From an uncultured Oscillospiraceae bacterium (lineage in GTDB: Bacteria; Bacillota; Clostridia; Oscillospirales; Oscillospiraceae), in NCBI GenBank assembly GCA_944383195.1, contig CALWOP010000177.1, forward strand, positions 58,390-122,389: a stretch of DNA of 64,000 nt, written 5' to 3'. The notes below the pieces were generated by a model that worked only from the letters and a program-made list of their open reading frames with translations, did no database searches and was not told the DNA's origin. Below, one piece after another: positions 40,498-45,087 of this stretch. Within the stretch, counting starts at the first letter, position 1. The number at the start of each line of letters is the position of its first letter. A program made the position numbers and the translations under genes.

Positions 40498-41031
40498 ATG
40501 TATAAACTTCTTGTTATTGTAGATGCACAAAATGATTTTATTACCGGAGTTCTCGGTACTCAGGAAGCTAATGCTGCGGTTCCGAATATCATAAATCTTA
40601 TTAAAGATAATAAATGGGATGATATTATCTGTACTATGGATACTCACCAAGACAATTATCTAAATACTCTTGAAGGAGAAAAGCTTCCTGTTAAGCATTG
40701 TATTGATACAGAGCCTGGATGGTGTATGGATTCTCGTATCCTTATTACTCTTGGTAATCGTTATAGCTTCTATAAGAAAGATACCTTCGGTAGTGCGGAT
40801 CTTGTAAATGAGGTATATGATAAATTTGGTGAGACGCAGCGTGATATTGAAATCCATATTTGTGGTTTTTGCACTGATATTTGCGTAATGGCTAATGCAG
40901 TTATGCTTCGTGCGGCAATGCCGAATACTAGAATTGTAGTTCATGCTAATGCGTGTGCAGGAGTAACGCCTGAATCTCATAATGCGGCTTTAACTATCTT
41001 TAAAGCTCAGCAGATTGATGTGGAGGATTAA
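40498..41031 (+). CDS. pncA: nicotinamidase / isochorismatase-family hydrolase
   Basis: The motif VDAQNDF and a Cys in ICGFCTDICV are present. Confidence 0.75.
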   Translation: MYKLLVIVDAQNDFITGVLGTQEANAAVPNIINLIKDNKWDDIICTMDTHQDNYLNTLEGEKLPVKHCIDTEPGWCMDSRILITLGNRYSFYKKDTFGSADLVNEVYDKFGETQRDIEIHICGFCTDICVMANAVMLRAAMPNTRIVVHANACAGVTPESHNAALTIFKAQQIDVED

Positions 41032-41034
41032 GAT

Positions 41035-41844
41035 ATGATTAGCTTACTTGATGCCGAAAGTCGTTGGTCTGAAGTGATTGAACAGAACCATTTTCCAGAT
41101 GGCACACTTCATATTAATATGCCTCCTAACTACTTTGATTACGATACTATTGTTTGGAATTATGAGAACGATGCAGAACTTTTTACCTTGATTTGCGTAA
41201 AAGGCCATTTTGAAGATTTGCCTGTAACGCTTGATATGCCGTATATACCTCATGCAAGAATGGATAGAGTTCAAAAGCTTGAGGATGTATTTACTCTTAA
41301 ATATTTTTGCAAAGTGATTAACGACCTCCATTTTGATAAAGTTATCGTGCAGGATGCTCACTCCAATGTGTCTTTAGCTTTGCTTGATAGAGTTATGGAT
41401 CTTGACCCTATTGGAGAAATTAAAGAAACTATTGACAGAGTAAGCTACTATGAAAAAGAAGAGCCGATTCTATTCTTCCCTGATGAAGGAGCTATGAAAA
41501 GATATTCCAATGACCTTAATCTCCCTTATGCTTTTGGGATTAAGAAAAGAGATTGGTCTACTGGGAAAATTCTAGGCTTGCAGTTAATGAATGGTGAATT
41601 GGTTAAAGATAAAACCGTTCTTATTGTAGATGACATTTGCTCTCGTGGAGGAACCTTCTATCATGCGGCTAATGCACTAAAGGAAGCCGGAGCAAAGAAT
41701 ATCTATCTATATATTACCCACGCTGAGCATACTATGGTTGAAGGAAATATGTATAATCAAGACGTGGTAAAGAAAATCTTTACTACTGATAGCATCTTCA
41801 AGCCGGAGTGGGATATTAGAAGAAAGGTAGAGATTGTTCGATGA
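41035..41844 (+). CDS. ribose-phosphate pyrophosphokinase-like (Prs/Adps-like) type-I PRTase
   Basis: FPDGT (compare Prs FSDGE) and the PRPP loop VLIVDDICSRGGTF; 269 aa, shorter than canonical Prs. Confidence 0.75.
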   Translation: MISLLDAESRWSEVIEQNHFPDGTLHINMPPNYFDYDTIVWNYENDAELFTLICVKGHFEDLPVTLDMPYIPHARMDRVQKLEDVFTLKYFCKVINDLHFDKVIVQDAHSNVSLALLDRVMDLDPIGEIKETIDRVSYYEKEEPILFFPDEGAMKRYSNDLNLPYAFGIKKRDWSTGKILGLQLMNGELVKDKTVLIVDDICSRGGTFYHAANALKEAGAKNIYLYITHAEHTMVEGNMYNQDVVKKIFTTDSIFKPEWDIRRKVEIVR

Positions 41845-42290
41845 CACTTGAAATGCTTCAGTCAGCAAAAATTGCTGCAACGAAAGCTAGAGATGTTGAA
41901 ACAAAAAGAGTTTTAAGCGATATGATAGATGCTTGTCAAAAGGCATCTATTACTTCTAAAGGTAGAGTTGAAATCACTGAGCAGTTGGTTGATGAAACTC
42001 TTATCAAATATCAAAAAACAGTCCAAGAAATGATTGATACTTGTCCTAGCTCTTATGAGGATAAACTCAAGCAGTATAAAGCAGATATGGAGATTGTAAA
42101 ACAGTACGCTCCGCAGTTAATTACAGATAAAGAATCAATAGCAAATAGAGTTAAGGAAATCGCGGGAGCGCAAGGTATAGAGCTCGTTAAAGCAAACCGT
42201 GGTGCGCTTATGAGGTCCATTTCCGCGGAACTTAAAGGTAAGGCTGATATGAAGATTGTCAGTGCTATTGTTGGAGATATTTTGAATTAA
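41841..42290 (+). CDS. GatB/YqeY-domain protein
   Basis: The C-terminal segment ELKGKADMKIVSAIVGDIL resembles B. subtilis YqeY KVKGKADGSLVNKLVQEQL. Confidence 0.6.
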   Translation: MTLEMLQSAKIAATKARDVETKRVLSDMIDACQKASITSKGRVEITEQLVDETLIKYQKTVQEMIDTCPSSYEDKLKQYKADMEIVKQYAPQLITDKESIANRVKEIAGAQGIELVKANRGALMRSISAELKGKADMKIVSAIVGDILN

Positions 42291-42307
42291 AGGAAGGTTT
42301 AAATAAA

Positions 42308-42667: not shown

Positions 42668-42709
42668 AATGTTTAAAGCTCTCTTAATGAGGGCTTTTTA
42701 TTTTTATAA

Positions 42710-42745
42710 AAATATATGATATAATATATATAAGAAATGAAGAAA
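42710..42745 (+). promoter_or_regulatory. conserved phage promoter
   Basis: atatgatataatatatataagaaatgaagaaaggaag. Confidence 0.6.
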
Positions 42746-42755
42746 GGAAGATTTT

Positions 42756-44342
42756 ATGAGTTTCTTTCCTATGTTCGCAGCTGACTACTACAAGGTTGGT
42801 CATGCCATTAAAATGCAGCCAAAGTCTGCTTCAATGGTTTATTCCACTTGGACAGCTCGTAGCTATAAGCATCATCCAGATTGTCCTAAGACCATAATCT
42901 TTGGTCATCAATATACTATTCAGAAACTTCTTATGTTTTGGCAGACAGAATTTTTTGACCAGCCCATTGAGCTTCTTGAACAGGAGTGGAATCATGTAAT
43001 TAAGAATACCTTCCACCCCGATTATGCAGACTTTACCAAGTTTAAAGAACTGCATAAGCTTGGTTATCTGCCTATTTCTATTATGGGAGTGCCAGAAGGT
43101 ACTCTTCTCCCCGTTGGTATTCCTGACCATGTGATTTTCTCTACTCACAAAGATTTTGCGTGGCTTCCCCAGTTTATTGAAGATCAGTGGAGCGCTAATA
43201 ACTGGCTTCCTTCTACTTCTGCTACGACAGCTTTTTATCGTCGTAAGTTGATTGAGCCTTATGTCAGGACTAGTTGTGACGATATGTCTGCTCTCCCGCA
43301 TATGTGCGGCGACTTCTCTCTGCGCGGACACACAAGTCTTGAGGCGGGTTATATCTCAGGAGCCGCGCATGCTCTTTCTTTTGATAGAACTGCAACTATT
43401 GGCTCTAATCTTCTCCTTGAGAAATATTATGGAGCAGATCTTGAAAATAACCCTCCTATGATGGGAACTCCTTCTCTTGAGCACTCTGTTGTTGAACAGG
43501 GTGTAGCTTGGATGAAACAGAAGATTACCAATGGGGACCTAACTGCAATTGAGCGTTATCTTTTCTCTAAGGCGGCTTTTGATAATTGGGATATTAACCT
43601 TATTGCGGAAATGCTCTTTATAAATTATCTCTGCACTGAAGTTCAACCCACTGGGACTATGACTTATGTATCAGACACATATGATTATTGGGGCATTGTA
43701 TCTAAGGTTCTTCCTATGTTGCATGATGTTATTGCAGCAAGAGATGGATGTTTTTCTGTGCGGCCTGATAGCGGAGACCCCGTAAAGATTATCTGCGGCG
43801 ACCCTGATGCAGAGCCAGGTACGCCAGAATTTGAAGGAACTATCTTCCTATTGATTGATACCTTTGGAAGTAAATCTAATAATAAAGGTTATTTGGAGCT
43901 TCCTCCTTATATTCGCATGATTTATGGAGATGCTATTACTTCTGAGATTACTCAGAAAGTTTGCTCTTGGTGTGTTAATAATAATATCTCTGTGTCTAAT
44001 CTTTGCTTTGGTATTGGAGCTTACACCTATCAGTATGTTACTCGTGATACTAGAGGTTACGCTATTAAAGCTACAGATTGTATTCTTGACAATGATGAAA
44101 TTCAGATTTATAAAATGCCTAAAACTGATCCAGGTAAGAAGTCTCCTCGTGGCTGTGTAGCTATCTTTAAAGCATATAATGGAGATTATTGCTTAGTTGA
44201 AAATCTTACTCTCAAAGAAGCCATTGGATATAAAAATAATGTGATGAGATTTAAGGTCAAGAATGGAAAATTTTGTAGCGATAGTGTAGAAACTATTGAG
44301 ACTATTCGAGAGAGATTGATGGGAGAGAAATTCTGTGATTGA
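42756..44342 (+). CDS. nadV: nicotinamide phosphoribosyltransferase family (NadV/NAMPT, or Namat-like)
   Basis: FAADYYKVGHAIKMQP matches human NAMPT LATDSYKVTHYKQYPP. FSVRPDSGDP matches IIRPDSGNP. YIRMIYGDAI matches YLRVIQGDGV. Confidence 0.85.
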   Translation: MSFFPMFAADYYKVGHAIKMQPKSASMVYSTWTARSYKHHPDCPKTIIFGHQYTIQKLLMFWQTEFFDQPIELLEQEWNHVIKNTFHPDYADFTKFKELHKLGYLPISIMGVPEGTLLPVGIPDHVIFSTHKDFAWLPQFIEDQWSANNWLPSTSATTAFYRRKLIEPYVRTSCDDMSALPHMCGDFSLRGHTSLEAGYISGAAHALSFDRTATIGSNLLLEKYYGADLENNPPMMGTPSLEHSVVEQGVAWMKQKITNGDLTAIERYLFSKAAFDNWDINLIAEMLFINYLCTEVQPTGTMTYVSDTYDYWGIVSKVLPMLHDVIAARDGCFSVRPDSGDPVKIICGDPDAEPGTPEFEGTIFLLIDTFGSKSNNKGYLELPPYIRMIYGDAITSEITQKVCSWCVNNNISVSNLCFGIGAYTYQYVTRDTRGYAIKATDCILDNDEIQIYKMPKTDPGKKSPRGCVAIFKAYNGDYCLVENLTLKEAIGYKNNVMRFKVKNGKFCSDSVETIETIRERLMGEKFCD

Positions 44343-45087
44343 TAATACCATTATTCGAATTACTAATTGGATTAAAGAATACTTTGTTGAAAACGGTCCA
44401 GATTGCAAGGCCGTTATCGGTATTTCTGGTGGTAAAGACTCTACAATTGCGGCAACCCTTTTATGTGAAGCGCTTGGGCCGGAGAGAGTTATCGCGGTAA
44501 AGATGCCTCAAGGGTTTCAACATGATATTGAGGTAGCAAATAAAGTTATTAAATACCTTGACATTAAAGAGGTTTATGAAATAAACATTGGTTCTACTTG
44601 CGATGCTCTTTACTCTAATCTGCCTGATAATATTCGTGATAATCAAGCCGTAAAAAGTAATACTCCAGCAAGAGTAAGAATGTCTATTCTATATGCGATT
44701 GCGGCGGCCCGGCATGGTAGAGTTGTTAATACTTGCAATAAGAGTGAAGATTATGTAGGTTATTCTACAAAATTTGGAGATTCTGCGGGAGACTTCTCTA
44801 TCTTTGCAAATTACACTGTTCGAGAAGTAAAAGAGATTGGGAGGTATCTTGATATTCCATCTGAGTTCATTGATAAAGTTCCAGAAGATGGATTAAGTGG
44901 ATTGACAGATGAAGATAATCTAGGGTTTACATACGAACAGCTGGATAGATACTTGAATGATGGTATTTATCCAGACTATGATATTTATAAGAATATCGAG
45001 GAAAGACATAAAAGAAATCTTCACAAGATTAGAAGAATGCCTACTTGTCCAAATTTCAATAAACATTCTCGCTATGATGATATTTAA
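44335..45087 (+). CDS. nadE: NH3-dependent NAD+ synthetase
   Basis: PP-loop GISGGKDST; 250 aa. Confidence 0.8.
   Translation: MIDNTIIRITNWIKEYFVENGPDCKAVIGISGGKDSTIAATLLCEALGPERVIAVKMPQGFQHDIEVANKVIKYLDIKEVYEINIGSTCDALYSNLPDNIRDNQAVKSNTPARVRMSILYAIAAARHGRVVNTCNKSEDYVGYSTKFGDSAGDFSIFANYTVREVKEIGRYLDIPSEFIDKVPEDGLSGLTDEDNLGFTYEQLDRYLNDGIYPDYDIYKNIEERHKRNLHKIRRMPTCPNFNKHSRYDDI

Follow-up and report, generated by a model that had tools for sequence, protein, structure and literature searches.

What route to nicotinamide adenine dinucleotide (NAD+) is encoded by a phage locus that combines an ADP-ribose-based NAD+ reconstitution pair with a nicotinamidase and an NAD synthetase? The question is raised by six consecutive forward-strand open reading frames (ORFs) at positions 40498 to 45087 of the window analysed here, a 64,000-nucleotide (64-kb) stretch of contig CALWOP010000177.1. 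They encode a nicotinamidase (PncA, ORF1), a Prs-like protein (ORF2), a YqeY-domain protein (ORF3), a membrane protein (ORF4), a NAMPT-family enzyme (ORF5) and NadE (ORF6), an order that had been given in an initial annotation and is borne out by the ORF coordinates and by Pfam, PHROG and NCBIfam scans; the motifs cited there (VDAQNDF, FPDGT, VDDICSRGGTF and SGGKDS) are all found in the ORFs. That annotation leaned towards reading the Prs-like and NAMPT-like pair as NARP1, the phage pathway of Adps and Namat, with PncA and NadE as an added Preiss-Handler-type branch. From the features of the proteins and of their relatives, we somewhat favour a different reading, in which the cluster would be a deamidated variant of NARP1, composed of four enzymes encoded in two operons.

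The transferase ORF5 (42756..44342, + strand, 528 amino acids) is assigned from PDB matches, motifs, clade and neighbours as a Namat-family enzyme, with a predicted nicotinate ADP-ribose transferase activity. Namat is defined by an adenine "selectivity clamp", which consists of the helix motif GS-X-Phi-X-Phi-X-Phi-TRD, where X is aromatic, and of a loop of which the third residue may be Arg, Lys or Tyr (PMC12774641). The clamp helix of ORF5, G421-AYTYQYVTRD-431 (GAYTYQYVTRD), deviates at position 2, where Ala stands for Ser, and is aromatic at positions 3, 5 and 7; the corresponding sequence is GSFTYQYNTRD in SpβL1 Namat and GGGLLQMVNRD in T4-like Nampt. In the clamp loop, Lys38, an accepted variant, aligns with SpβL1 Arg40 at the stacking position, and His39 comes next. 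The best PDB matches, 9w5x and 9w5w, correspond to the SpβL1 Namat sequence and score 327 bits, compared to about 145 bits for human NAMPT. The clamp and the 327-bit structure match favour NARP1 over NadV salvage. Placement against NadV and Namat, which the initial annotation had proposed as a check, led to the same family: by the clamp motif and a neighbour-joining tree rooted on T4-like Nampt, ORF5 is classed with Namat and not with Nampt or NadV.

The nicotinamide pocket of Namat comprises Asp13, Tyr15, Phe189, Arg192, Asp215, Ala242 and Arg306; in the SpβL1 enzyme Asp215 hydrogen-bonds the nicotinamide, and the D215A exchange cuts activity about 8-fold (PMC12774641). Five of these seven residues are conserved in ORF5 (D13, Y15, F189, R192 and R306 are invariant), with Ala213 replacing Asp215 and Ser240 replacing Ala242. 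Both changes are common to the whole clade that is linked to PncA and NadE. Among the best 120 database homologues of ORF5, all have Ala at the position equivalent to 215 and all keep the clamp, and the aromatic clamp residues that stack on adenine are preserved by most members of the clade lacking the Asp. In human NAMPT the residue equivalent to Asp215, D219, sets the substrate specificity, and D219S is listed as a substrate switch. A manual motif alignment of E. coli PncB, the nicotinate phosphoribosyltransferase (DFGTRR...FVGTSN...GTQAHE), with SpβL1 Namat (DFSMRG...FTGTDT...PATEHS) and ORF5 (DFSLRG...FDRTAT...PSLEHS) puts Ser and Thr of PncB at the positions equivalent to Asp215 and Ala242. 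The long forms have Arg or Lys at position 213, and such a basic residue was considered as a general binder of the nicotinate carboxylate; the idea was rejected, as the 489-residue members and those of the type of locus L042 have Gly or Asn there.

The two substitutions were related to gene content in 150 loci, 69 of them viral or phage (with flanks of about 10 kb) and 81 bacterial. For the viral loci, pocket residues were taken from the alignment and neighbouring genes were detected by tblastn; the residue-215 classes in the viral and bacterial gene counts are alignment-based. A regular-expression classification of residue 215 was discarded in favour of these calls, having misread at least two loci (L027 and L066). 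Of the viral loci, 28 have Ala or Ser at 215 together with Ser242, and these contain Adps in 28 cases, NadE in 28 and PncA in 27, the single one without PncA (L057) being truncated upstream. The other 41 have Asp or Glu at 215 together with Ala242; Adps is present in 38 of them, NadE and PncA in none. Fisher tests on the viral loci give p-values of 6e-20 for NadE and 2.5e-18 for PncA, uncorrected for shared ancestry.

The bacterial loci divide along the same line. Ala215 with Ser242 occurs at 26 loci, from Clostridium, Ruminococcus and Oscillospiraceae, where PncA is found 24 times, NadE 13 times and an adjacent NrtR gene 20 times; the two exceptions for PncA are L078, which is truncated upstream, and L081, in which none is detectable. 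The PncA gene of the Clostridium loci is flanked by adps and namat. The 55 loci with Asp215 and Ala242 (Paenibacillus, Cohnella, Bacteroidota and others) include neither PncA nor NadE, and NrtR is adjacent in 48. Detection with profile hidden Markov models confirms the pattern, 93 of 94 loci classed as Asp/Glu being without both genes; the remaining one, L121, has a 25-bit isochorismatase match. In essentially all loci examined, loss of Asp215 goes together with PncA and NadE. The two genes persist at about 40% sequence identity, in phages as well as chromosomes, and despite rearrangements: gene orders are PncA-Adps-Namat-NadE (P-A-N-E), P-A-y-N-E, P-A-N-h-E, A-N-E-P, A-P-N and versions with inserts, and this variation argues that the two genes are retained by selection. 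Two additional contigs show PncA-Adps-Namat-NADAR-NadE and PncA-Adps-Namat-NadE beside a PnuC/NadR-like pair.

Some details of these loci are of interest in their own right. On the first of the two additional contigs (L073), the gene for the NADAR-domain protein lies between namat and nadE at 9675-10499; on the second (L074), a metallophosphatase gene, a NadR-like gene (AAA_28, HxGH) and a PnuC gene occupy 1735-4342, so that a NARP3-like pair stands next to the four-gene module. In phage phAss-1 (L001), a 139-residue protein annotated as hypothetical is encoded between namat and nadE (10587-11006) and contains FDFDDTV, a DxDxT motif of the HAD type; it possibly serves the pathway as an accessory phosphatase. 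Glu replaces Asp at position 215 in two Namat-like proteins, of L036 and of Prevotella phage Lak-B9 (L068, 8001-9479), and for the latter, a Lak megaphage copy, no Adps is detectable within 8 kb.

The distribution bears directly on a first alternative, in essence the view taken by the initial annotation, in which ORF2 and ORF5 would rebuild NAD+ from ADP-ribose and nicotinamide as their counterparts in SpβL1 and Bas63 do, PncA and NadE would boost the Preiss-Handler pathway of the host by way of host PncB and NadD, and the pocket changes would be neutral. The assignment of ORF2 and ORF5 to the Adps and Namat families agrees with this view, and Clostridia hosts typically have PncB and NadD. However, it leaves unexplained why PncA and NadE are found only with the enzymes lacking the Asp and never with the 96 of Asp/Glu type, and why phages add NadE but never PncB or NadD. 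PncA would also compete with Namat for nicotinamide, in an operon in which the genes are co-transcribed and translationally coupled (a 3-nucleotide gap separates ORF1 from ORF2), and the roughly 8-fold drop in activity of SpβL1 Namat with D215A also speaks against this view. We regard this explanation as unlikely. The co-occurrence of Asp loss with PncA and NadE instead points to four enzymes forming one integrated pathway, probably via nicotinate and deamido-NAD (nicotinic acid adenine dinucleotide, NaAD), and does not support a separate Preiss-Handler-type branch. What stands of the original NARP1 proposal is that the pair is of the Adps and Namat families, rather than belonging to Prs and NadV salvage; nicotinamide as the base is not supported, Asp215 being replaced by Ala213.

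The donor for the transferase reaction depends on ORF2 (41035..41844, + strand, 269 amino acids), a predicted Adps-like ADP-ribose pyrophosphokinase by its phrog_619 match and by blastp. Its profile behaviour parallels that of the validated SpβL1 Adps: phrog_619 scores 229 bits for ORF2 and 248 bits for SpβL1 Adps, TIGR01251 (cutoff 113) scores 99.9 and 106, respectively, and both proteins miss all NCBIfam Prs equivalog cutoffs by a wide margin. By blastp, its score is 138 bits with SpβL1 Adps and 59.7 bits with E. coli Prs. ORF2 also retains the catalytic Lys (the K162 column) as part of K-x-R-[DN]-x-x-T-G-x-I, a motif common to all Adps and not present in Prs. Profile scores, blastp scores and the Lys motif together assign ORF2 to the Adps family and not to Prs.

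These results weigh on a second alternative, a module based on phosphoribosyl pyrophosphate (PRPP). Here ORF2 would be a true Prs producing PRPP, ORF5 a nicotinate phosphoribosyltransferase producing nicotinic acid mononucleotide (NaMN), host NadD would convert NaMN to NaAD and phage NadE would finish the synthesis. The pocket substitutions of ORF5 do resemble PncB, depositors annotate relatives as nicotinate phosphoribosyltransferase and ribose-phosphate pyrophosphokinase, and SpβL1 Namat retains some activity with PRPP. Against it, ORF2 scores as an Adps and falls, like the validated enzyme, under every Prs equivalog cutoff; SpβL1 Adps was reported to convert ADP-ribose and ATP but gave no product in a PRPP-synthetase control assay. 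The conserved clamp aromatics would serve no purpose with PRPP, PRPP chemistry can do without the clamp, the phage loci have no accompanying NadD, and the bacterial operons adjoin the gene for NrtR, which senses ADP-ribose. This makes the PRPP-based module improbable, even more so than the preceding alternative.

The two remaining enzymes of the proposed pathway are recognizable from their active sites. ORF1 (40498..41031, + strand, 177 amino acids) is a PncA-type nicotinamidase (Pfam Isochorismatase, 7e-18), for which the best PDB match is the pyrazinamidase/nicotinamidase of P. horikoshii, 1ilw. Alignment to this structure identifies catalytic residues Asp9, Lys93/94 and Cys129 and metal site residues Asp48, His50 and His67, the triad and D-x-H...H site typical of nicotinamidases. 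ORF1 scores far under the cutoff of the NCBIfam PncA equivalog, suggesting it is a divergent member of the family. ORF6 (44335..45087, + strand, 250 amino acids) is a single-domain, NH3-dependent NAD synthetase (Pfam NAD_synthase, 9.5e-49). Its identification as NadE holds up well, with a TIGR00552 score of 159.2 against a cutoff of 63.65; the SGGKDS PP-loop is present and a glutaminase domain is absent.

Combined, the four activities would form a closed sequence of reactions. ORF1 would deamidate nicotinamide released by the NADase effectors of defence systems, yielding nicotinate and NH3. ORF2 would use ATP to pyrophosphorylate ADP-ribose, the other cleavage product, to ADP-ribose pyrophosphate (ADPR-PP). 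ORF5, in which the amide-selecting Asp is lost and the adenine clamp is kept, would then join nicotinate to ADPR-PP to give NaAD, bypassing PncB and NadD, and ORF6 would amidate NaAD to NAD+. The net reaction would be ADPR + nicotinamide + 2 ATP -> NAD+, with the ammonia from the first step balancing the ammonia used in the fourth. Of the pathways that draw on all four conserved enzymes and on nothing else, this nicotinate/NaAD route appears to be the simplest. Its likely purpose in the phage would be to restore NAD+ during infection of NAD+-depleting hosts, probably Clostridia; both the analogy with NARP1 and the presence in a phage make a role in counter-defence plausible.

Several considerations weigh against the nicotinate route and temper our preference for it. 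The non-Asp proteins of the Namat family group in a single clade whose sister is formed by the canonical Namats, so the pocket substitution may have arisen once, the covariation may trace to one ancestral event and the Fisher tests overstate the independence of the loci. The clade itself has a neighbour-joining bootstrap value of just 58% and contains three deep sub-lineages. In human NAMPT only D219S is listed as switching the substrate and D219A is listed as a loss of activity; most members of the clade carry Ala at position 215. The PncB equivalents had to be read by manual motif alignment, because a profile-profile alignment of the Namat family with E. coli PncB covered no more than the C-terminal GIG motif, with a probability of 5%. 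An NMNAT or NadD could be encoded in the phage genome outside the 64-kb window. There is also no evident need for a phage to bring its own PncA, nor an evident gain from the detour via nicotinate. Finally, the PDB matches of ORF6 are NH3-dependent NAD synthetases, the best being 3fiu, which we take to be the Francisella NadE, described as a nicotinamide mononucleotide (NMN) synthetase that prefers NaMN and has marginal NAD synthetase activity; with this as the best structural relative, NaAD is no more than a predicted substrate of ORF6.

The 3fiu match, at 124 bits, is what speaks for a third alternative, a Francisella-like route in which NaMN made by ORF5 would be turned into NMN by ORF6, working as an NMN synthetase, and NAD+ would be completed by an NMNAT of the host or by one encoded elsewhere in the phage. 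Its lead over ordinary NadE structures is small, the next match scoring 107 bits (a 17-bit margin), and ORF6 passes the NCBIfam nadE model. The conversion of nicotinamide via nicotinate and NaMN to NMN would be a pointless detour, given that Nampt makes NMN in one step. Nor was an NMNAT found in the window, as the initial annotation had already remarked: the NMNAT/NadD signature GxFxPxHxGH is absent from all six frames of the 64 kb, and the non-cluster ORFs scanned with Pfam contain no CTP_transf_like match. Of the viral loci and the additional phage-like contigs (L072-L074), just one, L074, has an HxGH motif, which belongs to the NadR-like gene beside PnuC. We consider the Francisella-like route very improbable.

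Returning to the deamidated pathway, the cluster can be compared with the NAD+ systems already described, which include NARP1, its extended forms NARP1-AP and NARP1 with RyDEP, NARP2, NARP3 and bacterial NARP1. With NARP1 (Adps and Namat, as in SpβL1, Bas63, FADO and ICP1) it shares an Adps-family pyrophosphokinase, a clamped Namat-family transferase, the phage setting and a predicted ADPR-PP intermediate, and adps and namat lie within the 10 genes of each other that are used to recognize the system, with two genes between them here. It differs in that Ala replaces the nicotinamide-binding Asp215 and Ser replaces Ala242, so that the intact pocket which also serves for recognition is not present; in that nicotinamidase and NAD synthetase are obligatory partners and the transferase is predicted to yield NaAD instead of NAD+; and in that YqeY and a small membrane protein are encoded between adps and namat, with the genes in two operons. 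The extended forms, NARP1-AP with the macro-domain phosphatase Adpp and NARP1 with the RyDEP glycosidase, resemble the cluster in that a two-gene core has recruited accessory enzymes which feed or complete the pathway. In those forms the accessory step precedes Adps and supplies ADPR made from ADPR-1P or cyclic ADPR, whereas here PncA would modify the pyridine base and NadE the product. Neither the cluster nor the other window ORFs that were scanned yielded a macro or RyR domain.

From the Preiss-Handler pathway (PncA-PncB-NadD-NadE) the cluster has the first and last enzymes, PncA and NadE, and the predicted deamidated intermediates. PncB and NadD are not in the window, in which no second phosphoribosyltransferase was found either; Adps is predicted to take their place together with the Namat-like enzyme, the latter attaching nicotinate to an ADP-ribosyl donor formed beforehand. 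NARP2 (Nampt and Nmnat, Vibrio phage KVP40) is likewise a phage route to NAD+ against NAD+-depleting defences and includes a NAMPT-family enzyme, but ORF5 is in the Namat clade and has the clamp that Nampt lacks, and the 64 kb contain no Nmnat. NARP3 (PnuC and NadR, Bas30) also provides NAD+ against such defences; neither PnuC nor a NadR-like ORF was found among the window ORFs scanned, although the related contig L074 carries such a pair. As an earlier description of the cluster NARP3 was discounted, its PnuC and NadR pair being unrelated.

In bacteria, Adps-Namat pairs are common in chromosomes, including those of Paenibacillus, Cohnella, Pedobacter, Fibrella and Clostridium. NrtR is present at 68 of the 81 bacterial loci (genomes L076-L155). 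It is an ADP-ribose-responsive regulator of NAD metabolism, with ADP-ribose as its effector (Rodionov et al. 2008). The position of bacterial Adps-Namat operons beside NrtR suggests a housekeeping role beyond phage counter-defence, and the recycling of ADP-ribose may be the ancestral one. The nrtR-prs-nadV operons described by Rodionov et al. (2008) and the bacterial NARP1 of Paenibacillus foliorum resemble these loci in having homologous Adps-like/Namat-like pairs beside NrtR, but they are of the Asp215 type and lack PncA. In the parts of the NrtR study available to us, the prs-nadV operons are noted as puzzling and the clostridial prs-pncA-nadV form is not among the cases given (Rodionov et al. 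2008). Judged by gene content and pocket residues, it is the clostridial nrtR-adps-pncA-namat(Ala215) operons, some of them including nadE, that correspond in bacteria to the phage cluster; the literature consulted does not describe these operons.

No description of NARP1 together with NadE or a nicotinamidase was found in the literature searched, which did not extend to subscription-only publications, and the NARP1 literature searched does not mention the use of nicotinate; the phAss-1 paper does not discuss the NAD cluster genes. This suggests that the predicted reaction of a nicotinate-based version of NARP1 has not been described previously. More generally, we lean slightly towards the proposition that Namat-like enzymes with Ala or Ser at 215 and Ser at 242 make NaAD from nicotinate and ADPR-PP and, with PncA, Adps and NadE, form a fourth, deamidated NAD+ reconstitution pathway, which would be widespread in gut phages, including TAG-recoded ones, and would occur in Clostridia as an NrtR-associated operon for ADP-ribose recycling. 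Few bacterial strategies against phages are as common as NAD+ depletion, and phages are known to answer it mainly with NARP1. If the proposition is true, NaAD would be made directly from ADP-ribose, a new activity in NAD biochemistry, and a two-residue signature would predict which base the enzyme uses. Tools that label such loci as NARP1, or as Prs with NAPRT, would then miss a functional split, and phage counter-defence would be connected with an operon for ADP-ribose recycling on the chromosomes of gut Clostridia.

The arrangement of the genes is compact. The six ORFs span 40498-41031, 41035-41844, 41841-42290, 42308-42667, 42756-44342 and 44335-45087, with gaps from ORF1 to ORF6 of 3, -4, 17, 88 and -8 nucleotides. 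An extended -10 motif, TATGATATAATA, has 27 matches in the window with at most one mismatch, compared to 1.8 expected. Inside the cluster it occurs only 5' of ORF1 (40460..40471, + strand) and 5' of ORF5 (42715..42726, + strand), both exact matches; the next copy lies past NadE (45125-45136, + strand). Each of these three copies is preceded by a terminator-like hairpin on the same strand. The first, AAAGGAGAG-TCATAT-CTCTCCTTT (40421..40444), ends the upstream gene and was read from the sequence, its architecture being that of the hairpins at 42675 and 45085. The second, between the operons (42675..42697), has a 9-base-pair stem and the third, closing operon 2 (45085..45110), an 11-base-pair stem, both followed by a T-run. 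The two motif copies within the cluster, each behind a hairpin, and the small gaps indicate two operons, ORF1-4 and ORF5-6; the suggestion that every gene has its own copy of a strong promoter was thus mistaken. The same regulatory unit, a GC-containing hairpin followed by TTTATAA and then TATGATATAATA, punctuates the genome at 27 sites, among them 7063, 8975, 33267, 35630, 40460, 42715, 45125, 61027 and 63495.

The two other genes of operon 1 may be lineage-specific passengers or accessories. ORF3 (41841..42290, + strand, 149 amino acids) has a Pfam YqeY match (1e-10), and its presence is restricted to a sub-lineage: YqeY occurs in L003-L008 and is absent from the remaining loci of the non-Asp clade. 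ORF4 (42308..42667, + strand, 119 amino acids) matches phrog_31229, of unknown function, and has four hydrophobic segments, consistent with the membrane protein of about four transmembrane segments that had been proposed. It has no Pfam match, including none to NMN_transporter. A role as niacin or nicotinamide riboside transporter was considered and rejected on account of its small size, the missing family match and the non-homologous small transmembrane protein that occupies its slot in relatives.

Megablast of the cluster revealed no near-identical DNA in GenBank phages, and relatives were reached at the protein level. The closest named relative is phage phAss-1, from the human gut, which belongs to the "code 15" clade and has Clostridia as predicted host. 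ARAGORN predicts 31 tRNA genes in the window, in an array at 6797-27861, and a tmRNA at 14323-14637 with the tag peptide DNAYFENHLAA; a tmRNA is unusual in a phage. A suppressor tRNA with a CTA anticodon is located at 25732-25805, and coverage by long ORFs rises from 63% to 78% when TAG is read as sense. The suppressor tRNA and the gain in coverage indicate that the window comes from a TAG-recoded phage, which appears to read TAG as sense. None of the six NAD cluster genes has an in-frame TAG. Many other ORFs of the window contain 2-16 of them, for example a lysozyme/amidase at 50035-51555 and the ORFs at 37178-38398 and 59194-60105.

Upstream of the cluster, an RNA ligase is encoded at 38364-39647; downstream (45315-47151) are a metallophosphatase, an AAA_33 (PNK-like) kinase and an ORF, 46597-47151, which looks phosphoesterase-like by eye and has no separate Pfam match. 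The ligase and the phosphatase and kinase on either side look like an RNA-repair set, so that the region may be a counter-defence island. Further upstream, an 809-residue ORF (30786-33215) matches the shoulder and vault-repeat domains of Major Vault Protein, and the ORF before it (28878-30383) matches DUF2828 and DUF7788, forming a vault-like gene pair in a phage. Three paralogous ORFs, at 27930-28841, 39707-40417 and 47189-47935, contain repeated CxCxCG...SCGC zinc-finger-like motifs and 4-5 in-frame TAGs each, and the latter two flank the NAD cluster directly. A DUF2726 match was obtained from the protein that holds ORFs 39707-40417 and 47189-47935, with the best stretch in 39707-40417; the three paralogues may be homing-endonuclease-like elements.

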